Part shown: positions 3,089 to 62,545 of the stretch, piece by piece
Numbering within the stretch: the stretch's first letter is position 1
How the letters are laid out: the number at the start of each line of letters is the position of its first letter
Assembly (NCBI GenBank): GCA_038065395.1
Contig: JBBTRB010000004.1
Coordinates: forward strand, 135,178-199,177
Direction of reading: 5' to 3'
Length of the DNA: 64,000 nt
Source of the DNA: Patescibacteria group bacterium
GTDB taxonomy: Bacteria > Patescibacteriota > Minisyncoccia > Phycocordibacterales > PALSA-1337
Translations under genes and position numbers: made by a program
The notes under the pieces: model-generated
What the model was told of the DNA's origin: nothing
What the model saw: only the letters and a program-made list of their open reading frames with translations
Databases searched by the model: none

Positions 3089-4804
3089 ATGGATCCTCAT
3101 CAACGACTCCGAGCGCGTGGCATACTCATAGGCATTATTCTGACCGCATGCATACTCGGTTTTTCGTTGTATTGGATACAGATCGTTCAGGGCGACACCT
3201 ATAGAGCCAAGGCCAACCTTCAATACGAGAAACCGTCAGCCTATGCACTCGATCGAGGCTCTATCTTCTTCAACTCCAAAGACGGCACTCGCGTCTCAGC
3301 AGCTACGGTCACTCAGGGTTTCGTAGTGCATATGGATCCGACCAAAGTGACTGATATCGAAAGTGAATATCAGGCACTCTCGCATTATATCTACGTTGAT
3401 AAGGATGATTTTGTGCGCAAAGCACAAAAGCCAGGAGATCGATATGAAGAGATCGTAGAACGAGCAGATGCTGACAAGGCGATCGCTATAGCAGAACTCG
3501 GACTTCCGGGAATCGGTATATCCAAGAAGAGTTGGCGGTCATATCCGGGCGGTCAGCTGTCCTCGCATGTGTTGGGATTGATCGGTGAGAACGGCGATGG
3601 TTCTATCGAAGGTCGCTACGGTCTCGAGCGTACCTACGAAGAGATACTCAAACGTACCTCACAGAGTGCCAGTACCAATGTGTTCACACAGATATTCACG
3701 GGTCTGCGTGATACGGTGTTCGGCAGTAGTGGTACCAAACAGGGTGACATCGTCACCACTATCGAGCCAACCGTCGAAGGGTATGTCGAAGGAATACTCA
3801 AAAACATCCAAGCAGAATGGAACTCCGACAGGGTAGGAGCTATCGTGATGGAACCTCGTACGGGTAAGATCGTTGCTATGTCTGCATTGCCGACATTCGA
3901 TGCGGGTAACCTCTCGGGTATCAGTGACGTATCGATACTCTCCAACCCACTGGTCGAGCATGTCTATGAGATGGGTTCGATCATGAAGCCATTGACCATG
4001 GCGATCGGTCTCGATACTGGAGCGATCAAGCCAACCTCTACCTACGAAGACACGGGTACGATGACGATCGGTGACAAGAAGATCTCCAACTATGACGGCA
4101 AGGCGCGCGGCACAACCGTGATGCAAGAAGTTTTGAGTCAGTCGCTCAACCTGGGTGCGGCGACGATCGCTCTCAAAGTGGGGAGTGAAGATTTCAAAAA
4201 ATATTTTGATATGTTCGGCTTTGGGACCAAAACCGGTATCGATCAACCTAACGAAGGTACTGGACTCCTTGATAACCTTGACTCGGCGCTCGATATCGAG
4301 ATCGCAACCGCGGCGTACGGCCAAGGCGTAGCAGTCTCTCCTATTGCGATGACACGTGCCTTGGCGGTTCTAGCCAATGGTGGCTACGCAGTCCGACCAC
4401 ATCTCGTCGAACGTATCGAGTATGCCGACGGCAGTACCACAGAAGTCCCTGTAGAAAAAAGTGATCGTATCCTCGGTCAAAAGGCTGTGGAGGATACGAC
4501 CAAGATGTTGGTCAGAGTCGTCGACACTGCTCTCAAGGGTGGAGATATCAAGATGGAACGTTATACGGTTGCCGCAAAGACGGGTACTGCCCAGATCGCT
4601 GATCCTGAAAATGGCGGATACTACACTGACCGATACTTACACTCATTCTTCGGATATTTCCCTGCATACGATCCACAGTTCATCATTTTCCTTTATCATG
4701 TGAACCCAAAGAACGCTCGTTTCGCTTCTGAGACCCTCACCAAACCTTTCCAAGAGATCAGTCGTTTCCTCATCACGTATTACGACATCCCGCCGGATCG
4801 ATGA
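3089..4804 (+). CDS. ftsI: Penicillin-binding protein transpeptidase (FtsI/PBP3-like)
   Basis: N-terminal TM and the transpeptidase triad SIMK (SxxK), SNY (SxN), KTGTA (KTG). dcw context. Confidence 0.85.
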   Translation: MDPHQRLRARGILIGIILTACILGFSLYWIQIVQGDTYRAKANLQYEKPSAYALDRGSIFFNSKDGTRVSAATVTQGFVVHMDPTKVTDIESEYQALSHYIYVDKDDFVRKAQKPGDRYEEIVERADADKAIAIAELGLPGIGISKKSWRSYPGGQLSSHVLGLIGENGDGSIEGRYGLERTYEEILKRTSQSASTNVFTQIFTGLRDTVFGSSGTKQGDIVTTIEPTVEGYVEGILKNIQAEWNSDRVGAIVMEPRTGKIVAMSALPTFDAGNLSGISDVSILSNPLVEHVYEMGSIMKPLTMAIGLDTGAIKPTSTYEDTGTMTIGDKKISNYDGKARGTTVMQEVLSQSLNLGAATIALKVGSEDFKKYFDMFGFGTKTGIDQPNEGTGLLDNLDSALDIEIATAAYGQGVAVSPIAMTRALAVLANGGYAVRPHLVERIEYADGSTTEVPVEKSDRILGQKAVEDTTKMLVRVVDTALKGGDIKMERYTVAAKTGTAQIADPENGGYYTDRYLHSFFGYFPAYDPQFIIFLYHVNPKNARFASETLTKPFQEISRFLITYYDIPPDR

Positions 4805-6441: not shown

Positions 6442-6513
6442 GGCCCTATCGTCTAATGGCTAGGACGGAGCCTTCTCAAGGCTTAAATCGGGGTTCGACT
6501 CCCCGTAGGGTCA
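6442..6513 (+). tRNA. tRNA-Glu (anticodon CUC)
   Basis: Manual cloverleaf fold: acceptor GGCCCTA/TAGGGTC, D-arm GTCT..GGAC, anticodon stem GAGCC/GGCTT with loop TTCTCAA, T-arm CGGGG-TTCGACT-CCCCG, discriminator A. No encoded CCA. Confidence 0.8.
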
Positions 6514-6884
6514 CAGGTTTTGAGCGAGCACAGCGAGTGAAAAAGCTGTGACCCTAAGCAAAGCGTCTGCACGCTTTGCGTCGGGGAGTCGAAAAGGTTC
6601 TCCCTTATTTTCGACACTCTGAAGCGTAGCGGAAGAGGGGAGAAAATGGGAAACCTGTACTGAAGCTGTAAGCTTCGACTCCCCGTAGGGTCACAAACAG
6701 ATATGAAACGGTTTTCCAGTGCCTGGAATCCTCGTTTACACTTATATTCCAACGTATCTTCTATGATGGTGAGTTCGGAAAAGATTAACTTGATGATTGC
6801 TTCCTTTTCTGTTGGTTTGGCGAAATCATAATATAAACAAACGTTTTTCAAGAGTTCGGAAAGTTTTACTATATCCTTCGTCAT
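6483..6884 (-). CDS. Hypothetical small protein. Only the N-terminal ~60 codons (6700..6884) lie in unique sequence; the rest of the ORF reads through the att-like repeats and the tRNA
   Basis: ORF only. No recognisable motif. Its 3' part overlaps the tRNA and repeats, so the true extent is doubtful. Confidence 0.2.
   Translation of the reverse strand: MTKDIVKLSELLKNVCLYYDFAKPTEKEAIIKLIFSELTIIEDTLEYKCKRGFQALENRFISVCDPTGSRSLQLQYRFPIFSPLPLRFRVSKIRENLFDSPTQSVQTLCLGSQLFHSLCSLKTCDPTGSRTPI
6494..6700. repeat. Cluster of reiterated tRNA-Glu 3'-end fragments (att-like scars)
   Basis: A direct 22-bp exact copy of the tRNA T-arm/acceptor is at 6674..6695. Inverted partial copies are at 6540..6552 and 6579..6597. 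A further partial direct copy lies at 12954..12965. Confidence 0.65.
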
Positions 6885-58104: not shown

Positions 58105-60027
58105 CTACTTCTTCTCCTTAAACTCTGCATCCTTCACATCTCCCTCTGCCTCCTTACTTTCACCACCTGGCTGTGCGCCTGGAGGAGGAGTTTGCTGAGC
58201 ATTTTTTGCTAGATGCTCGCCGATCTTCGAAATCTCCGATGAGAGAGCTTCGGTGGCAGCTTTGATAGCCGCGATATCTGAACCATCTTTGGTGGTTTTC
58301 AACGTTGCAATCTTCCCTTCGATCGAAGTGGCAAGCTCTGCAGGGATCTTTTCTTTGTTTTCCTTGAGAGCCTTTTCGGACATATAGAGCACTTGCTCGG
58401 CGGTGTTCTTGACCTCGATTGCGTCGCGCTTGGCCTTGTCTTCTGTTTCGTGAGCAGCGGCTTCTTGCTTCATCTTCTCAACTTCATCTTTGGAAAGTCC
58501 AGAAGAAGCAGTGATCTTGATCGAGTTGGCCTTGCCGGTTGCTTTGTCTTTTGCAGTTACATTGAGGATACCGTTGGCATCGACGTCGAACGAGACTTCG
58601 ATCTGTGGCATGCCACGAGGAGAAGGTGGGATACCATCGAGGATGAATCTTCCGAGGGACTTGTTGTCACCTGCCATGGCACGCTCACCTTGAGTGATAT
58701 GGATCTCTACCGACGGCTGGTTGTCAGCGGCAGTTGAGAATACTTGAGACTTCTGAGTAGGGACGGTTGTGTTCTTCTCGATGAGCTTGGTAGCTACTCC
58801 GCCCATGGTTTCGATACCGAGTGACAGTGGGATCACGTCGAGCAAGAGAACGTCTTTGACTTCCCCGCCCAAGATACCTCCCTGGATCGCCGCGCCCACC
58901 GCAACCACCTCGTCGGGATTCACACCCATGTGAGGATCTTTTCCGAAGAATGTCTTGACTGCATTTTGGAGTGCCGGCATGCGTGTCTGACCACCGACCA
59001 AGATGACTTCGTTAATCTCTCCTACTTTGAATGGTGACGCTTCGACTGCACGCTTGGTAATAGCCATCGCACGGTCGACGAACTCCTGGGTCATAACTTC
59101 CAGTTGTGCGCGTGTGAGGGTGACGAGGAGGTGCTTCGGCCCATCGGTACCTGAGGTGATGAATGGGATGTTGATCTCTGTCTGAGCGGCGGTTGAGAGT
59201 TCGATCTTGGCTTTTTCTGCAGCTTCATCCAGACGTTGGAGAGCGAGCGCGTCTCTCTTGAGGTCGATGCCATTTTCTTTTGCGAAGGTATCTGCAAGCC
59301 AGTTGACGATCTTGGCATCGATATCACGGCCACCAAGATGTGAGTCACCGTCGGTAGACTTTACTTCGATAACATCATCACCGACTTCGAGGACTGAGAT
59401 ATCGAATGTTCCTCCACCGAAGTCGAAGACTGCGATTTTCTCGTCCTTCTTTTTGTTAAATCCGTATGCAAGTGCCGCAGCTGTTGGTTCGTTGATGATG
59501 CGCTTTACATCGAGACCAGCGATCTGACCTGCGTCTTTGGTTGCTTGGCGTTGTGAGTCGTTGAAGTAAGCAGGAACAGTGATCACTGCTTCGGTGACCT
59601 TTTCCCCGAGGCGAGCTTCGGCGTCGGCTTTGATCTTCTGAAGGATCATGGCTGAGATTTCTTCTGGACGGAGCCACTTGTCACCTTGCCCTGAGCCTGT
59701 CGAAGGGGCTGCCATCTTTACTTCGATGCCACCGTTGGCGGCTTTGCGAACTTCGAATGGAACGTTCTTGATATCTTTCTGAACATCAGCTTCGTCGAAT
59801 GTGTGACCGATGAAGCGTTTGATCTGAGAGATGGTGTTCTTTGGGTTGGTAACAGCCTGACGTTTTGCCAGGAGTCCGACGAGTCGTTCGCCTGTCTTGG
59901 ACTGTGCGACGATCGAAGGAGTGGTGCGTTGACCTTCTGCGTTTTCGAGAACTCTCGGAGAGCCGGCTTCCATAACGGCGACGGCTGAGAAGGTTGTTCC
60001 GAGGTCTATTCCGATGATTTTGGACAT
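58105..60027 (-). CDS. dnaK: Chaperone DnaK (Hsp70)
   Basis: [29 protein letters not shown], full length 640 aa. Confidence 0.95.
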
Positions 60028-60179
60028 AGTGTTTAGGTGTAATTAGTAAGTGGTAACTAGCAATGAATATTTGACAGTAGCTACTATAAGTGATATACTG
60101 CTATTTAGTTTCGAACCTTACAACATGCTCATTTGACCAAGCAAACGCTTGGAGGTTAGAGCAAGGAGAAAATTTACAA

Positions 60180-60556
60180 TGAAGGACGGAGAGAAAGCAA
60201 ATATCGCAGTTAATGGTGAAGAATTGACCGTCTGGTTTGATTCCTATTTGGGTCAGCCAGTTCGTCCAGGAGCTAAATGCTTCCATTGCGGAAAACCAGC
60301 CACTCAATTGGATATTATCGAGGTCGAACGAATTGATTGGAATGGCGTCGACCTTCCATTGAAGAAACCTTTTGCCAAAACGGTCATCAGGAAATTGAAT
60401 CCACTCCTCATGCATCGAGTTGCGTATTGCGATTCCTCGCATTGCGAAGAGACGTTAGCAAAACGTTCGTACGAGCTGCAACGAGTAGAGAAAATATTCA
60501 CTACTCGATCATTCAAAAGCCCTTACGATCCGGAACAAGAAGAACTGAGGAGTTAA
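60180..60556 (+). CDS. Hypothetical protein with a CxxC...C..C zinc-ribbon-like pattern
   Basis: RBS aggaga 9 nt upstream of the ATG at 60180. KCFHCGK ... YCDSSHCEE. Confidence 0.45.
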
Positions 60557-60731: not shown

Positions 60732-61085
60732 CTAAAAAGACGGAGCGCGGGTAGGTTGACTATGTATAATAAATTCTATAGTTGAAAATGGAGAGACTAT
60801 CGGAGTGACGGAAGAGATGTATTCGGTGACGGTGTCATTTTTTGGACATGAGAAAGGCAGGAGGAACTGGTCGGATACGTGTCCTGAACTTGTTGAATGA
60901 TTGCGTGTAGCGAGTGGTTGTGCAGAAACAAGCTGACCTTTGAGTTTTCCTTCAACGAGAGACACCAAGAACACCAGACGGAACTGTCGGCCGGTCTGGT
61001 CGGTGAAGATTTGCTCTATGAATTGTGGTTTATAAGGAGTAAGCATTGAGAGTTTTATATTAAGGCAAAAAAGGCCGGGGGTCAA
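60732..61085 (-). CDS. Hypothetical protein
   Basis: ORF only. Confidence 0.35.
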   Translation of the reverse strand: MTPGLFCLNIKLSMLTPYKPQFIEQIFTDQTGRQFRLVFLVSLVEGKLKGQLVSAQPLATRNHSTSSGHVSDQFLLPFSCPKNDTVTEYISSVTPIVSPFSTIEFIIHSQPTRAPSF

Positions 61086-61180
61086 GAGGCGTAGATTTTA
61101 TCGTTTCTTGAGACTAAATTCATCAGGAATTTATCTCGGGTTGCTAAAGTTTCTGGGCGGAAGATCATATCTTCCGCCGT

Positions 61181-61251
61181 GGACCAGTTCGCTGGTGCGA
61201 AAATCTTGGCTCGTCACCTAAGATTCGGGGGTTCGATTCCCCTCTGGTCCA
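61181..61251 (+). tRNA. tRNA-like element with a non-canonical fold (possible tRNA pseudogene or degenerate tRNA)
   Basis: 7-9 bp acceptor (g)tGGACCAG/CTGGTCCa(c). T-arm GGGGG-TTCGATT-CCCCT. 4-bp D-stem with a 4-nt loop. Anticodon stem is over-long and bulged with loop CTCGTCA, so anticodon assignment is unsafe. Preceded by the palindromic minihelix ggcggaagatcatatcttccgcc (61157..61179). Confidence 0.35.
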
Positions 61252-61465
61252 CAAACTTGACTTTTTATAATTAAGTAAACTATAATTATCAAGTCGATAT
61301 ATTCGACTGGTGGAACCGGTATGGGAAATCACCCTGACTGGCCCGTAAATTCTTACCTCGTGTAAGGATTTACATGACGACACAAAGTCCCTTCGGGGGC
61401 TTTTGTGTTTGTGTGTTGACAGGCTCGGTTAATGGGGGTAGTTTTGGGATAGACAACCAACAACG

Positions 61466-61921
61466 GTGGGTTATATACCTGCCACAACCAAAGGAATCGG
61501 CATGTTCACGGTCATTCATACTACGTACGGTCCGTCATTTCAAGAGAATCTGATCCTCGATAGCGTCAGATCTAACATCAACTGCATTTTCAGAGAGATC
61601 AACAATATCACCTTCGAACTGAGTCGAGCGTCTCTGGGTATAGCTGTTCGCCCGACAGAAGGTTCAGGTCGTTCCGCGTCTCTCGATGAATTGACGAGTT
61701 ATGGCGAATTGGCACAAGGGTTGGTCTCCGTATGCAAAAATGCCACGGAGCTGAATATTGAAATTCATTACAGTCAAGACGATCGACAGGTGACTCTTCA
61801 TGCATGCACCTTTCGTGACAGGGATATTCTCTTTGAACTGAACTGCTTTGGCAAAAAGGACGACCCTCGTATTCCTTACCAGTTCTACTACCTAGATCAC
61901 AAGTATCATTCTTCGCGATAA
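61466..61921 (+). CDS. Hypothetical protein
   Basis: ORF only. Confidence 0.4.
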   Translation: MGYIPATTKGIGMFTVIHTTYGPSFQENLILDSVRSNINCIFREINNITFELSRASLGIAVRPTEGSGRSASLDELTSYGELAQGLVSVCKNATELNIEIHYSQDDRQVTLHACTFRDRDILFELNCFGKKDDPRIPYQFYYLDHKYHSSR

Positions 61922-61969: not shown

Positions 61970-62545
61970 CTATTTCTTCCACTCCCCTACCTTCACCTTC
62001 GGCACCTTAATCTCTTTGCCATTGAGTGAATAGCCTTTTTGTAGGACTGCAACGACGGTGTGATCTTGCTTCTCATCCGTCACGGGTTCGTATGAGACAG
62101 CTTCATGTTTTGCATGGTCGAATGGTTGGCCGATCGGGTTGAGTTCTTGGAGACCATTCTCAGTCAATGCTTTTTGCAGTTGAGAATAGATATACTCTAC
62201 TCCTGTGCGCCAGTTCTTGTCTACTTTCTCCCAAGCATCCTTGTTCCCCATCGCCATATCGAAACTCTCCAAAACCGGCAACAGATCTTCGATCAGACGT
62301 TCGTTGGCGAACTTCATAAAGTTCCTGTTCTCCTCCTCGTCACGCTTGCGAGCGTTGACCATGTCGGCCTTGGCGCGTTGCCAGCCTGTCAGGTACTCGG
62401 TCTTCTCTGCTTCGGCTTTCTTGAGCTTTTCGCGGAGTTTCTTGATGGTTTCGGTCATGTTCTCTTCGGCCACGACCGAGTCATCCAATGTGTCGTCGGA
62501 TTCGATAGTAATGTCGTCTTGAGTTTTGAGTTCGTCTTCTTGCAT
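61970..62545 (-). CDS. grpE: Nucleotide exchange factor GrpE
   Basis: Coiled-coil N-terminus. C-terminal GrpE fold block EAVSYEPV...VVAVLQKGYSLNGKEIKVPKVKV. Confidence 0.85.
   Translation of the reverse strand: MQEDELKTQDDITIESDDTLDDSVVAEENMTETIKKLREKLKKAEAEKTEYLTGWQRAKADMVNARKRDEEENRNFMKFANERLIEDLLPVLESFDMAMGNKDAWEKVDKNWRTGVEYIYSQLQKALTENGLQELNPIGQPFDHAKHEAVSYEPVTDEKQDHTVVAVLQKGYSLNGKEIKVPKVKVGEWKK

Follow-up and report, generated by a model that had tools for sequence, protein, structure and literature searches.

What is the element that lies between dnaK and grpE, on the strand opposite to both, in a Patescibacteria group bacterium (lineage Phycocordibacterales, PALSA-1337)? The DNA considered here is a stretch of 64,000 nucleotides (GenBank assembly GCA_038065395.1, contig JBBTRB010000004.1, positions 135,178 to 199,177 of the forward strand), hereafter the window, whose own numbering is used throughout. 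An initial annotation of the window had described a palindromic minihelix followed directly by a non-canonical element resembling transfer RNA (tRNA), and had offered a decayed tRNA, an unusual tRNA or a tRNA-like integration target as its identity. The locus is larger than the element described, spanning ~61142-61410 (+), and contains two RNA genes: a tRNA-like RNA (TL) and, immediately downstream, a co-varying partner RNA gene that had been overlooked. The comparative data point to two adjacent RNA genes, a tRNA-shaped product and two co-varying intermolecular contacts, and on balance we lean towards the view that the two small RNAs work as a pair, in which TL is a tRNA mimic and the partner captures it. 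To our knowledge such a two-RNA pair is undescribed; searches of the full-text literature turned up neither a tRNA-like RNA in Patescibacteria nor an RNA pair of this kind, and neither TL nor its partner has an Rfam family.

A conserved tRNA-like RNA gene

The first of the two genes comprises the following features.

61142-61150 (+): predicted extended -10 promoter of TL, TGcTAAAGT, with a start at ~61156/61157 judged from sequence
61156-61178 (+): 5' hairpin GGCGGAAGAU-CAU-AUCUUCCGCC, 23 nt, 9-10 bp
61179-61180 (+): linker GU between hairpin and cloverleaf
61181-61251 (+): TL, a 71-nt cloverleaf
61181-87/61244-50 (+): acceptor stem GGACCAG/CUGGUCC, 7 bp
61188-61201 (+): D arm UUCGC-UGGU-GCGAA, stem 5 bp, loop 4 nt
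61202-61225 (+): long arm AAUCUUGG-CUCGUCAC-CUAAGAUU, 8 bp with an 8-nt loop
61211-16 (+): loop segment UCGUCA of the long arm, contacted by the partner
61227-43 (+): T arm GGGGG-UUCGAUU-CCCCU
61251 (+): discriminator A

Most of the anatomy given in the initial annotation holds. The 9-bp palindromic hairpin is present (9-10 bp), the 71-nt tRNA-like fold starts straight after it, and the gene coordinates bear out its place between dnaK (58105-60027, -) and grpE (61970-62545, -), on the strand opposite rplQ-rplM-rpsI-grpE ... dnaK-dnaJ. The acceptor stem, put at 7-9 bp, has 7 bp, or 9 when pairs of the linker GU with A73 and the C that follows are counted, and the T arm is exactly as described. 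The over-long, bulged anticodon stem with the loop CUCGUCA is a valid alternative to the long arm drawn here with 8 bp and an 8-nt loop. For the D arm the 4-nt loop was correct, while the stem has 5 bp and not the 4 proposed. The D stem directly abuts the acceptor stem and a single linker C separates the long arm from the T arm. The label of a non-canonical tRNA-like element is apt. The RNA lacks nucleotides 8-9, has a D loop of 4 nt and carries an over-long arm at the anticodon position. The gene encodes no CCA, its trailer being CAA. The minimum free energy of TL is -32.7 kcal/mol, compared with -21.2 +/- 3.1 for shuffled sequences (n=200; z = -3.75; 0 as good).

Homologues were sought around 80 grpE loci from related species by BLAST, descriptor scans, a covariance model and direct reading; the loose descriptor scans were noisy and were used only for matches confirmed by other means. 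The closest GrpE relatives of the window are Paceibacteria/Taylorbacteria-type genomes. TL has the same position and strand in eight loci (L007, L010, L015, L030, L039, L047, L057 and L066), lies elsewhere in L040 and is also present on three metagenome contigs (L154, L168 and L183), giving 13 copies with that of the window, all of which keep the four helices. Loci L001-L006 are identical to the window over the compared stretch (the same population) and add no variation; the contigs identical to the window stem from groundwater of Hainich well H41. The module is patchy among related genomes, being found in 10/80 grpE loci, a figure that need not be its true prevalence, since diverged copies such as L007 escape the covariance model.

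In a nine-sequence alignment built by hand on the cloverleaf, 96.9% of cells are paired and 17/23 pairs are changed on both sides, with covariation in all four helices; none of 500 shuffles was as good (0/500), and slid controls were only 38-60% paired. The TL covariance model (R1) scores 63.5 bits on the window copy and retrieves the same-locus homologues in other species. In L030, L039 and L047 GUAG in the D loop and UGCAACU in the T loop jointly replace UGGU and UUCGAUU, which suggests a co-varying tertiary elbow contact of the tRNA type. A 96-nt version in L168 (1011-1109, -) has the mini D arm swapped for an extra domain of ~40 nt and retains the acceptor, the long arm, the T arm and the partner contacts. 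As the helices are kept through compensatory changes and a promoter is predicted at each locus, TL is, on this comparative evidence, a conserved RNA gene under selection and not a product of decay. The decayed tRNA of the initial annotation does not fit 12 other loci that keep all four helices, with compensatory changes in 17/23 pairs and a promoter of their own.

A partner RNA that co-varies with TL

Every homologous locus has a near-consensus predicted promoter 5 to ~25 nt past the TL discriminator, and a partner RNA of ~75-120 nt with an intrinsic terminator. In the window the partner extends from 61293 to 61410 and has the following features.

61257-61286 (+): predicted sigma-70-type promoter, TTGACT-18-TATAAT, 11/12 consensus matches
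61293-61307 (+): 5'-terminal hairpin GUCGA-UAUAU-UCGAC
61308-61319 (+): segment UGGU GGA(A)CCGG facing the TL 3' end, 11 bp with a 1-nt bulge
61336-61343 (+): segment GACUGGCC facing the TL 5' strand (GG-A-CCAGUU), a weak or optional third contact
61345-61373 (+): internal 12-bp hairpin in the variable region, a predicted fold
61375-61380 (+): anti-loop UGACGA, against the TL loop UCGUCA (61211-61216)
61379-61410 (+): intrinsic terminator (scan 61384-61403 plus U tract; fold stem ~61379-61409)

Ten partners share this plan, termed type A: a 5' hairpin, UGGN with 3-12 nt of further complement, variable hairpins, an anti-loop of 5-8 nt that is always directly 5' of the terminator, and the terminator itself, which probably also ends read-through from the TL promoter. 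The GUCGA/UCGAC stem is invariant in nine of them; the corresponding hairpin of L007 is a different one. The first G of the hairpin is the 7th nt after the -10 box in the window, L010, L066, L057 and L168, and in L030 on one reading of its -10; in L038 the spacing is ambiguous. Partners of type B (L015, L040 and L047) do without the UGGN module; what they carry in its place is 14-16 nt or more of antisense complement to the D loop and to the 5' strand and loop of the long arm (16 nt in L015, ~16 nt in L040 and 14+7 nt in L047). L038 contains a complete type-A partner gene at ~3390-3500 (-) (UGGUGGAUC..., anti-loop CUGGUAA) with no adjacent TL gene; its mimic may be elsewhere in the genome or lost. 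No reading frame is conserved across the partner RNAs, and their interpretation as a coding piece was rejected on that ground.

The first contact joins UGGN and the segment after it to the 3' end of TL. Complementarity to the end, written with its CCA, is contiguous for 16 nt in L030 (UGGUGGAUCUGAUGGG against CCCAUCGGAUCC-A-CCA), 13 nt in L039 (UGGUUGACGUGAC against GUCACGUCA-A-CCA), 12 nt in L183 (UGGUGGAGUAGA against UCUGCUCC-A-CCA) and 11 nt in L007 (UGGAGCCGGUA against UGCCGGC-U-CCA), and comprises 11 pairs with a 1-nt bulge in the window (UGGUGGA(A)CCGG against CUGGUCC-A-CCA). Across nine pairs of RNAs, TL positions 66-73 co-vary with this segment. The discriminator is tracked, UGGU accompanying A73 in eight pairs and UGGA accompanying U73 in L007, as is position 72, where A72 of L039 is met by UGGUUGA. 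The second contact joins the anti-loop to the long-arm loop, through UGACGA/UCGUCA in the window and UUGAUGA/UCAUCAA, CUGGUGA/UCACCAG, UGGUAA/UUACCA, GCUGA/UCAGC, GCUAA/UUAGC and UGACAA/UUGUCA elsewhere.

The intermolecular alignment of the nine pairs is 90.6% paired, compared with 23-52% in slid controls, and 13/19 pairs, including positions 70, 71, 72 and the discriminator, are changed on both sides (0/500 shuffles). Cognate combinations also exceed permuted partners, both for 3'-end pairing (88 versus 63.4 +/- 5.3, p = 1e-4) and for loop pairing (57 versus 47.8 +/- 3.0, p = 0.0016). The third contact, with the TL 5' acceptor strand, is weak overall (permutation p = 0.013), being clear in L066, L154 and L168 and absent in L039. 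By cofolding ΔΔG, the cognate partner outranks the others in L010, L030, L154, L168, L015 and L040.

The CCA to which type-A partners are complementary is encoded only in L015; the other 12/13 TL genes have CAA, UGA, CAU, CAG or UAU in its place. Because the partner complements a CCA that these genes do not encode, it must, as the sequences read, match the mature CCA-tailed RNA and not a DNA repeat. This bears on the proposal that the locus is a decayed tRNA, a tmRNA (transfer-messenger RNA) fragment or an integration scar, with complementarity arising from DNA inverted repeats or gene conversion. The non-canonical anatomy, the patchy presence (10/80 grpE loci) and the A3-U70 pair of the window copy would suit such an origin, which nevertheless seems close to negligible: every helix is held by compensatory changes, the promoters and terminator are conserved, and DNA repeats do not account for the match to a CCA absent from the TL gene. 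As for the integration target suggested at the outset, no repeats, integrase or att-like duplications were seen at the locus, in agreement with the earlier remark that no intact integration signature is present.

Scans of metagenomic and viral sequences with the partner motif gave at least three new pairs, all metagenomic; the matches listed were mostly chance ones in high-GC coding DNA, and no module was present among the viral matches listed. Viral contigs scanned with the exact 26-nt T-arm/acceptor sequence gave no match.

The internal hairpin is present in most type-A partners with a differing sequence. In the window its loop CUCGU (61357-61361) equals the first five bases of the TL loop CUCGUCAC (61210-61214), an identity that could reflect chance or a common origin.

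A tRNA shape that apparently does not decode

ARAGORN called only a tRNA-Glu in the window, at 6442-6514, and not TL. No Rfam family reached its gathering score over the window TL; in E-value mode the tmRNA model matched best (21.2 bits against a gathering score of 47; E = 1.3e-6), its alignment being confined to the acceptor and the T arm and skipping model positions 18-345. For the TL copies tested the best Rfam match was always the tRNA-like domain of tmRNA (21.2, 29.6, 16.5 and 14.6 bits).

TL has the 7-bp acceptor stem, 5-bp T stem and 7-nt T loop of a tRNA. It has neither a 5-bp anticodon stem with a 7-nt loop and a conserved anticodon, nor nucleotides 8-9 and a D loop of 7-11 nt; the D loops are of 4 nt (UGGU, AGGU or GUAG). 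The anticodon-position stems are of ~6 bp or more, sometimes with internal loops, their loops are of 5-13 nt, and the orthologous loops are as different as CUCGUCAC, CUUCAUCAA, CCUCAUCAA, CUCACCA, CUUACCA, UUACC, UUUA, CUUCAGCAA and AUUGUCAG. Because this arm is of variable length and has an unconserved loop sequence, the comparison indicates that TL is non-decoding. The unusual tRNA of the initial annotation, which in the window would be, for example, a tRNA-Thr(CGU), could draw on the cloverleaf, the canonical T loop, the GG in the D loop, the 34.7 bits with which the R1 model also matches the genuine tRNA-Glu of the window, and the homologue in L015 (10662-10735, -), which ARAGORN accepts as tRNA-Met(CAU). 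A decoding role is nonetheless scarcely credible. The window copy was rejected both by ARAGORN and by the Rfam tRNA model, the D loop and the region of nucleotides 8-9 are not those of a tRNA, the 'anticodon' stem and loop vary as described, and orthologues at the same locus share no anticodon although they have one acceptor identity. Since the anticodon-position arms vary and the orthologous loops differ, the tRNA-Met call in L015 is, on this comparison, a mis-annotation.

The acceptor end is the more conserved part, with G1/G2, with G3·U70 in 10/13 copies and with A73 in 12/13. G3·U70 with A73 is the identity set of alanyl-tRNA synthetase (AlaRS), which reads only the acceptor stem, and is common to tRNA-Ala and tmRNA. 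The window has A3-U70, L015 has C3-G70, and L007, the closest relative of the window, has C3-G70 and U73. In view of these three copies the alanine-type identity is, from the alignment, frequent yet dispensable in TL.

The likeness to the tRNA-like domain of tmRNA (RF00023) extends to the 7-bp acceptor with G3·U70 and A73 in most members, the T arm GGGG-UUCGAUU-CCCC, a reduced D region with GG, and the absence of an anticodon, a long helix leaving the anticodon position. Unlike tmRNA, TL is only ~70 nt long (71 nt in the window), its long helix is closed by a loop, it has no message-like domain, tag frame or pseudoknots, its scores of 15-30 bits compare with a gathering score of 47 (21.2 in the window), and the window copy has A3-U70. 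Matches to permuted tmRNA (RF04321; 18.8 and 25.1 bits, E ~0.1) were treated as spurious because the window alignment overruns the partner terminator into unrelated sequence. Two-piece tmRNAs with an intermolecular acceptor stem exist, and this precedent, together with the rank of the tmRNA model among Rfam matches and the alanine identity of most copies, would be in keeping with a reduced or split tmRNA in which TL is the alanine-accepting domain and the partner provides the message part in trans. We regard this as highly improbable: the scores are far under gathering with only the acceptor and T arm aligned, the partners, which can be as short as ~73-78 nt, have no conserved frame, resume codon or pseudoknots, pairing of the partner to the CCA end would block charging, and the window copy has no G3·U70.

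The probable leader hairpin and the predicted TL promoter

The minihelix of the initial annotation is a genuine hairpin, which is better read as the 5'-terminal leader hairpin of TL's own primary transcript. A TGnTAnnnT box is located 30-36 nt upstream of TL G1 in most homologous loci (L040 has TATAAT instead), and from its position TL transcription is predicted to begin at the hairpin's first base. Promoters of this type also precede alaS in these genomes. The hairpin adjoins the TL 5' end in most homologues, L007 included, and L168 has no obvious one. The two arms of the hairpin vary in concert: CGGAAGA/UCUUCCG, CGUGAAG/CUUCACG, UGGAGG/CCUCCA, GGGAGG/CUUCCC (with G·U), CGAAGA/UCUUCG, GGAAGG/CCUUCC and ACAAGGG/CCCUUGU. 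The alternative that the palindrome is a DNA operator overlapping a -10 box was dropped because these arms change compensatorily, G·U included, and because the upstream TGnTAnnnT is the better promoter. The linker is mostly GU, with U at -1 and G at -2 in 8/10 homologues checked; RNase P prefers U at -1.

Repeated TTTATC(A) boxes are present upstream of the TL gene (61100-61140 in the window, with equivalents in L010, L015, L030, L040, L047 and L183), in a region shared by TL and a divergent small open reading frame (ORF). Some of them resemble DnaA-box or transcription-factor sites, an example being TTTTATCACACC in L183.

Resemblance to T-boxes, primer-binding sites and RNA sponges

T-boxes bind the NCCA end of a tRNA through UGGN, with A76 stacked on helix A1, and exclude charged tRNA by means of a steric sieve (PMC7583486). 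Type-A partners similarly meet a tRNA-shaped ligand at two distant points, one being a UGGN-NCCA pairing in which N tracks and co-varies with the discriminator, and the other a pairing with an (anti)codon-type loop. A neighbouring helix would offer the paired 3' end a stacking surface, the arrangement on which charge sensing by T-boxes depends. Unlike a T-box, the partner is a separate, terminated small RNA and does not form the leader of any amino-acid gene, its two sites come in the opposite order, the 3'-end pairing runs 3-12 nt further into the acceptor strand, the loop contact is of 5-8 bp as opposed to 3-4, and the ligand is a dedicated mimic. There is no Stem I platform, kink-turn, 14-nt T-box consensus or switch over an aminoacyl-tRNA-related gene, and no T-box Rfam match was obtained at E <= 10 or E <= 1.

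The binding sites of retroviral and long terminal repeat (LTR) element primers are complementary over 8-18 nt to the tRNA 3' end, CCA included, and open the acceptor; the A-rich loop of HIV-1 provides an accessory contact to the tRNA anticodon loop. The TL-partner contact has the same attributes, namely contiguous complementarity including CCA of 7-16 nt (11-16 in L007, L030, L039 and L183, against the at least 8 nt of a primer-binding site) that requires the acceptor to open, and an accessory loop contact. Unlike a primer site, it has almost no template upstream, and both RNAs are chromosomal small RNAs. A primer-template or ligation pair, in which the TL CCA end anneals to the partner and its 3'-OH is extended or joined to the abutting 5' triphosphate, would account for the 11-16 nt of complementarity to the CCA-bearing end and for the nick-like arrangement of all type-A pairs, where the paired A76 adjoins the first base pair of the partner 5' hairpin. 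Such a role is very doubtful given that the potential template is only a hairpin of ~15-30 nt and that type-B partners have no site for the CCA end. Among the ORFs adjacent to the module, which were read by their first residues only and not in a family scan, no reverse transcriptase or ligase gene was noticed.

Adjacent non-coding RNAs that base-pair with each other, one of them related to tRNA, are also a feature of RNA sponges and of type I and type VIII toxin-antitoxin systems; 3'ETS-leuZ, for instance, is a small-RNA sponge derived from a tRNA precursor. TL and its partner are likewise adjacent RNA genes with extended complementarity. In contrast to sponges, TL is a stand-alone gene with conserved tRNA features, and the CCA-end and loop contacts occur in a fixed architecture. 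The locus may thus encode a toxin/antitoxin-like or sponge pair, in which a TL decoy titrates AlaRS, EF-Tu, the CCA-adding enzyme, RNase P or the ribosome and the antisense partner neutralises it, for example via an RNase III duplex. This explanation, which we consider unlikely, though to be taken seriously, overlaps that of a captured mimic and differs from it only in having no readout of aminoacylation. It agrees with the type-B partners, which are plain antisense RNAs to the TL 5' half without UGGN, with the strong preference for cognate duplexes (ΔΔG -27.6 and -23.5 kcal/mol), with the predicted strengths of the promoters (near consensus for the partner, just an extended -10 for TL), with the patchy occurrence of the module at several unrelated sites, as is often seen for addiction-like modules, and with the lack in the partner of any other conserved single-stranded region able to target mRNAs. 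It leaves unexplained why, in type-A partners, UGGN is set exactly against the 5' hairpin and the discriminator is tracked, and the module is in single copy per locus with no sign of mobility.

Finally, the tRNA-like module of YrlA/Y RNAs and mascRNA share with TL an acceptor/T-arm minihelix likely to be handled by tRNA-processing enzymes, and mascRNA is the second-best Rfam match of the L183 copy (25.6 bits, gathering 42.5). TL is not excised from a long RNA, has no Ro/Rsr or rtcB context and differs from YrlA in its topology. We know of no YrlA/Y RNA or mascRNA mimic with a dedicated, co-evolving partner RNA. The pair described here combines the logic of T-boxes, primer-binding sites and antisense sponges and is a member of none of these families.

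A model for capture of the mimic

In the model that we favour, TL would be transcribed with its 5' leader hairpin, presumably cut by RNase P after U-1, trimmed at the 3' end and given CCA. The UGGN of the partner would pair with the discriminator and with the CCA that is added after transcription, the resulting ACCA:UGGU helix sitting on the partner 5' hairpin with the 3'-OH of A76 placed against that helix. Pairing could then extend into the 3' strand of the acceptor and, in some species, the T stem, a strand invasion that would open the stem, while the second site of the partner, by the terminator, would form a loop kiss with the TL long arm. A free, uncharged, CCA-tailed TL would in this way be clamped, and probably unfolded or sequestered, so that the partner would set the level of free mimic. 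The mimic is the likely effector and the partner its clamp or neutraliser, because the conserved features of the partner all serve mimic binding or partner stability. Processing, CCA addition, charging by AlaRS, the stacking geometry and the direction of regulation are parts of the scheme that we infer. The free mimic could be a decoy for AlaRS, EF-Tu, the CCA enzyme or the ribosome, an alanine donor, or a tmRNA-like entry factor.

A more specific version of the model is that the pair is a free-standing, all-RNA sensor, in which an alanine-accepting mimic reports the status of AlaRS or alanine, the partner binds only the uncharged CCA-tailed mimic, and the loop and anti-loop form a co-evolving private address. 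We hold this to be rather improbable. If true, the sensor, found in bacteria with reduced genomes, would be the first T-box-type sensor of aminoacylation outside cis leaders and the first with its own surrogate ligand.

Several observations weigh against the capture model. All TL and partner promoters are predicted from sequence. The covariation alignments were fitted by hand to the proposed pairings and the sequences are related; in addition, 3/9 of the type-A partners with GUCGA were retrieved with that motif as the search pattern. The CCA:UGG pairs are invariant and cannot co-vary, and pairing of the CCA rests on its contiguity with the co-varying helix. Pairing to the acceptor strand requires a stable 7-bp stem to be opened, and in the window the cofolding ΔΔG is -5.8 kcal/mol, no better than with non-cognate partners. 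Since the type-B partners have no UGGN, sensing of the CCA end is evidently not universal, and the alanine-type identity is absent from the window, L007 and L015. At the loci examined there is no conserved protein neighbour and no consistent downstream gene that would indicate an output.

If the pairing is real, the locus would represent a two-gene RNA module without a described counterpart in ultra-small bacteria, would take T-box-style tRNA recognition beyond cis leaders, would provide a natural case of RNA-guided opening of an acceptor stem outside retroelements, and would give the little-understood translation of Patescibacteria a further layer, regulatory or decoy, that is open to testing. 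Both RNAs are missed by standard annotation, and copies such as that of L015 could skew tRNA inventories of Patescibacteria. Orthogonal RNA-RNA pairs might be designed on the pattern of the co-varying private address.

Genomic context and neighbouring genes

Most partners run into convergent genes and others precede unrelated ones. In L040 the module is upstream of alaS, the AlaRS gene. A T-box leader of alaS was rejected and the association regarded as coincidental because the same TGCTAnnnT promoter is found by the ATG in ~28 loci without the module, and because the partner terminates before alaS. In these ~28 related loci alaS starts ~5-15 nt after the TGCTAnnnT box (L066 ~960-990, for example), which suggests that alaS leaders in these genomes are very short or absent. 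A heat-shock operator was also considered, and the window contains no CIRCE element.

A protein partner for the module was sought among the neighbouring ORFs and rejected, ORF135 and ORF151 being orphans and ORF117 being independent of the module. Four window ORFs near the element were scanned against Pfam and NCBIfam; neighbours at other loci were read by their first residues only. ORF151 (61466-61921, +; 151 amino acids) and ORF135 (60149-60556, +; 135 amino acids) have no homologue in the related loci and no Pfam or NCBIfam family. ORF135 contains a CxxC motif, has a promoter-like site at 60071-60099 and gives a weak, sub-threshold match to the C-terminal zinc domain of ProRS (E = 0.0027). 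The module is located between grpE and ORF117 (60735-61046, -; ~104 amino acids), which belongs to no Pfam or NCBIfam family, has a promoter-like site of its own at 61085-61057 (-) and is characterised by the motif PQFIxxIFTDxxGRQFRL. ORF117 is present between grpE and dnaK in 65/80 related loci regardless of the module, and it may belong, so far unnoticed, to the chaperone operon of the lineage.

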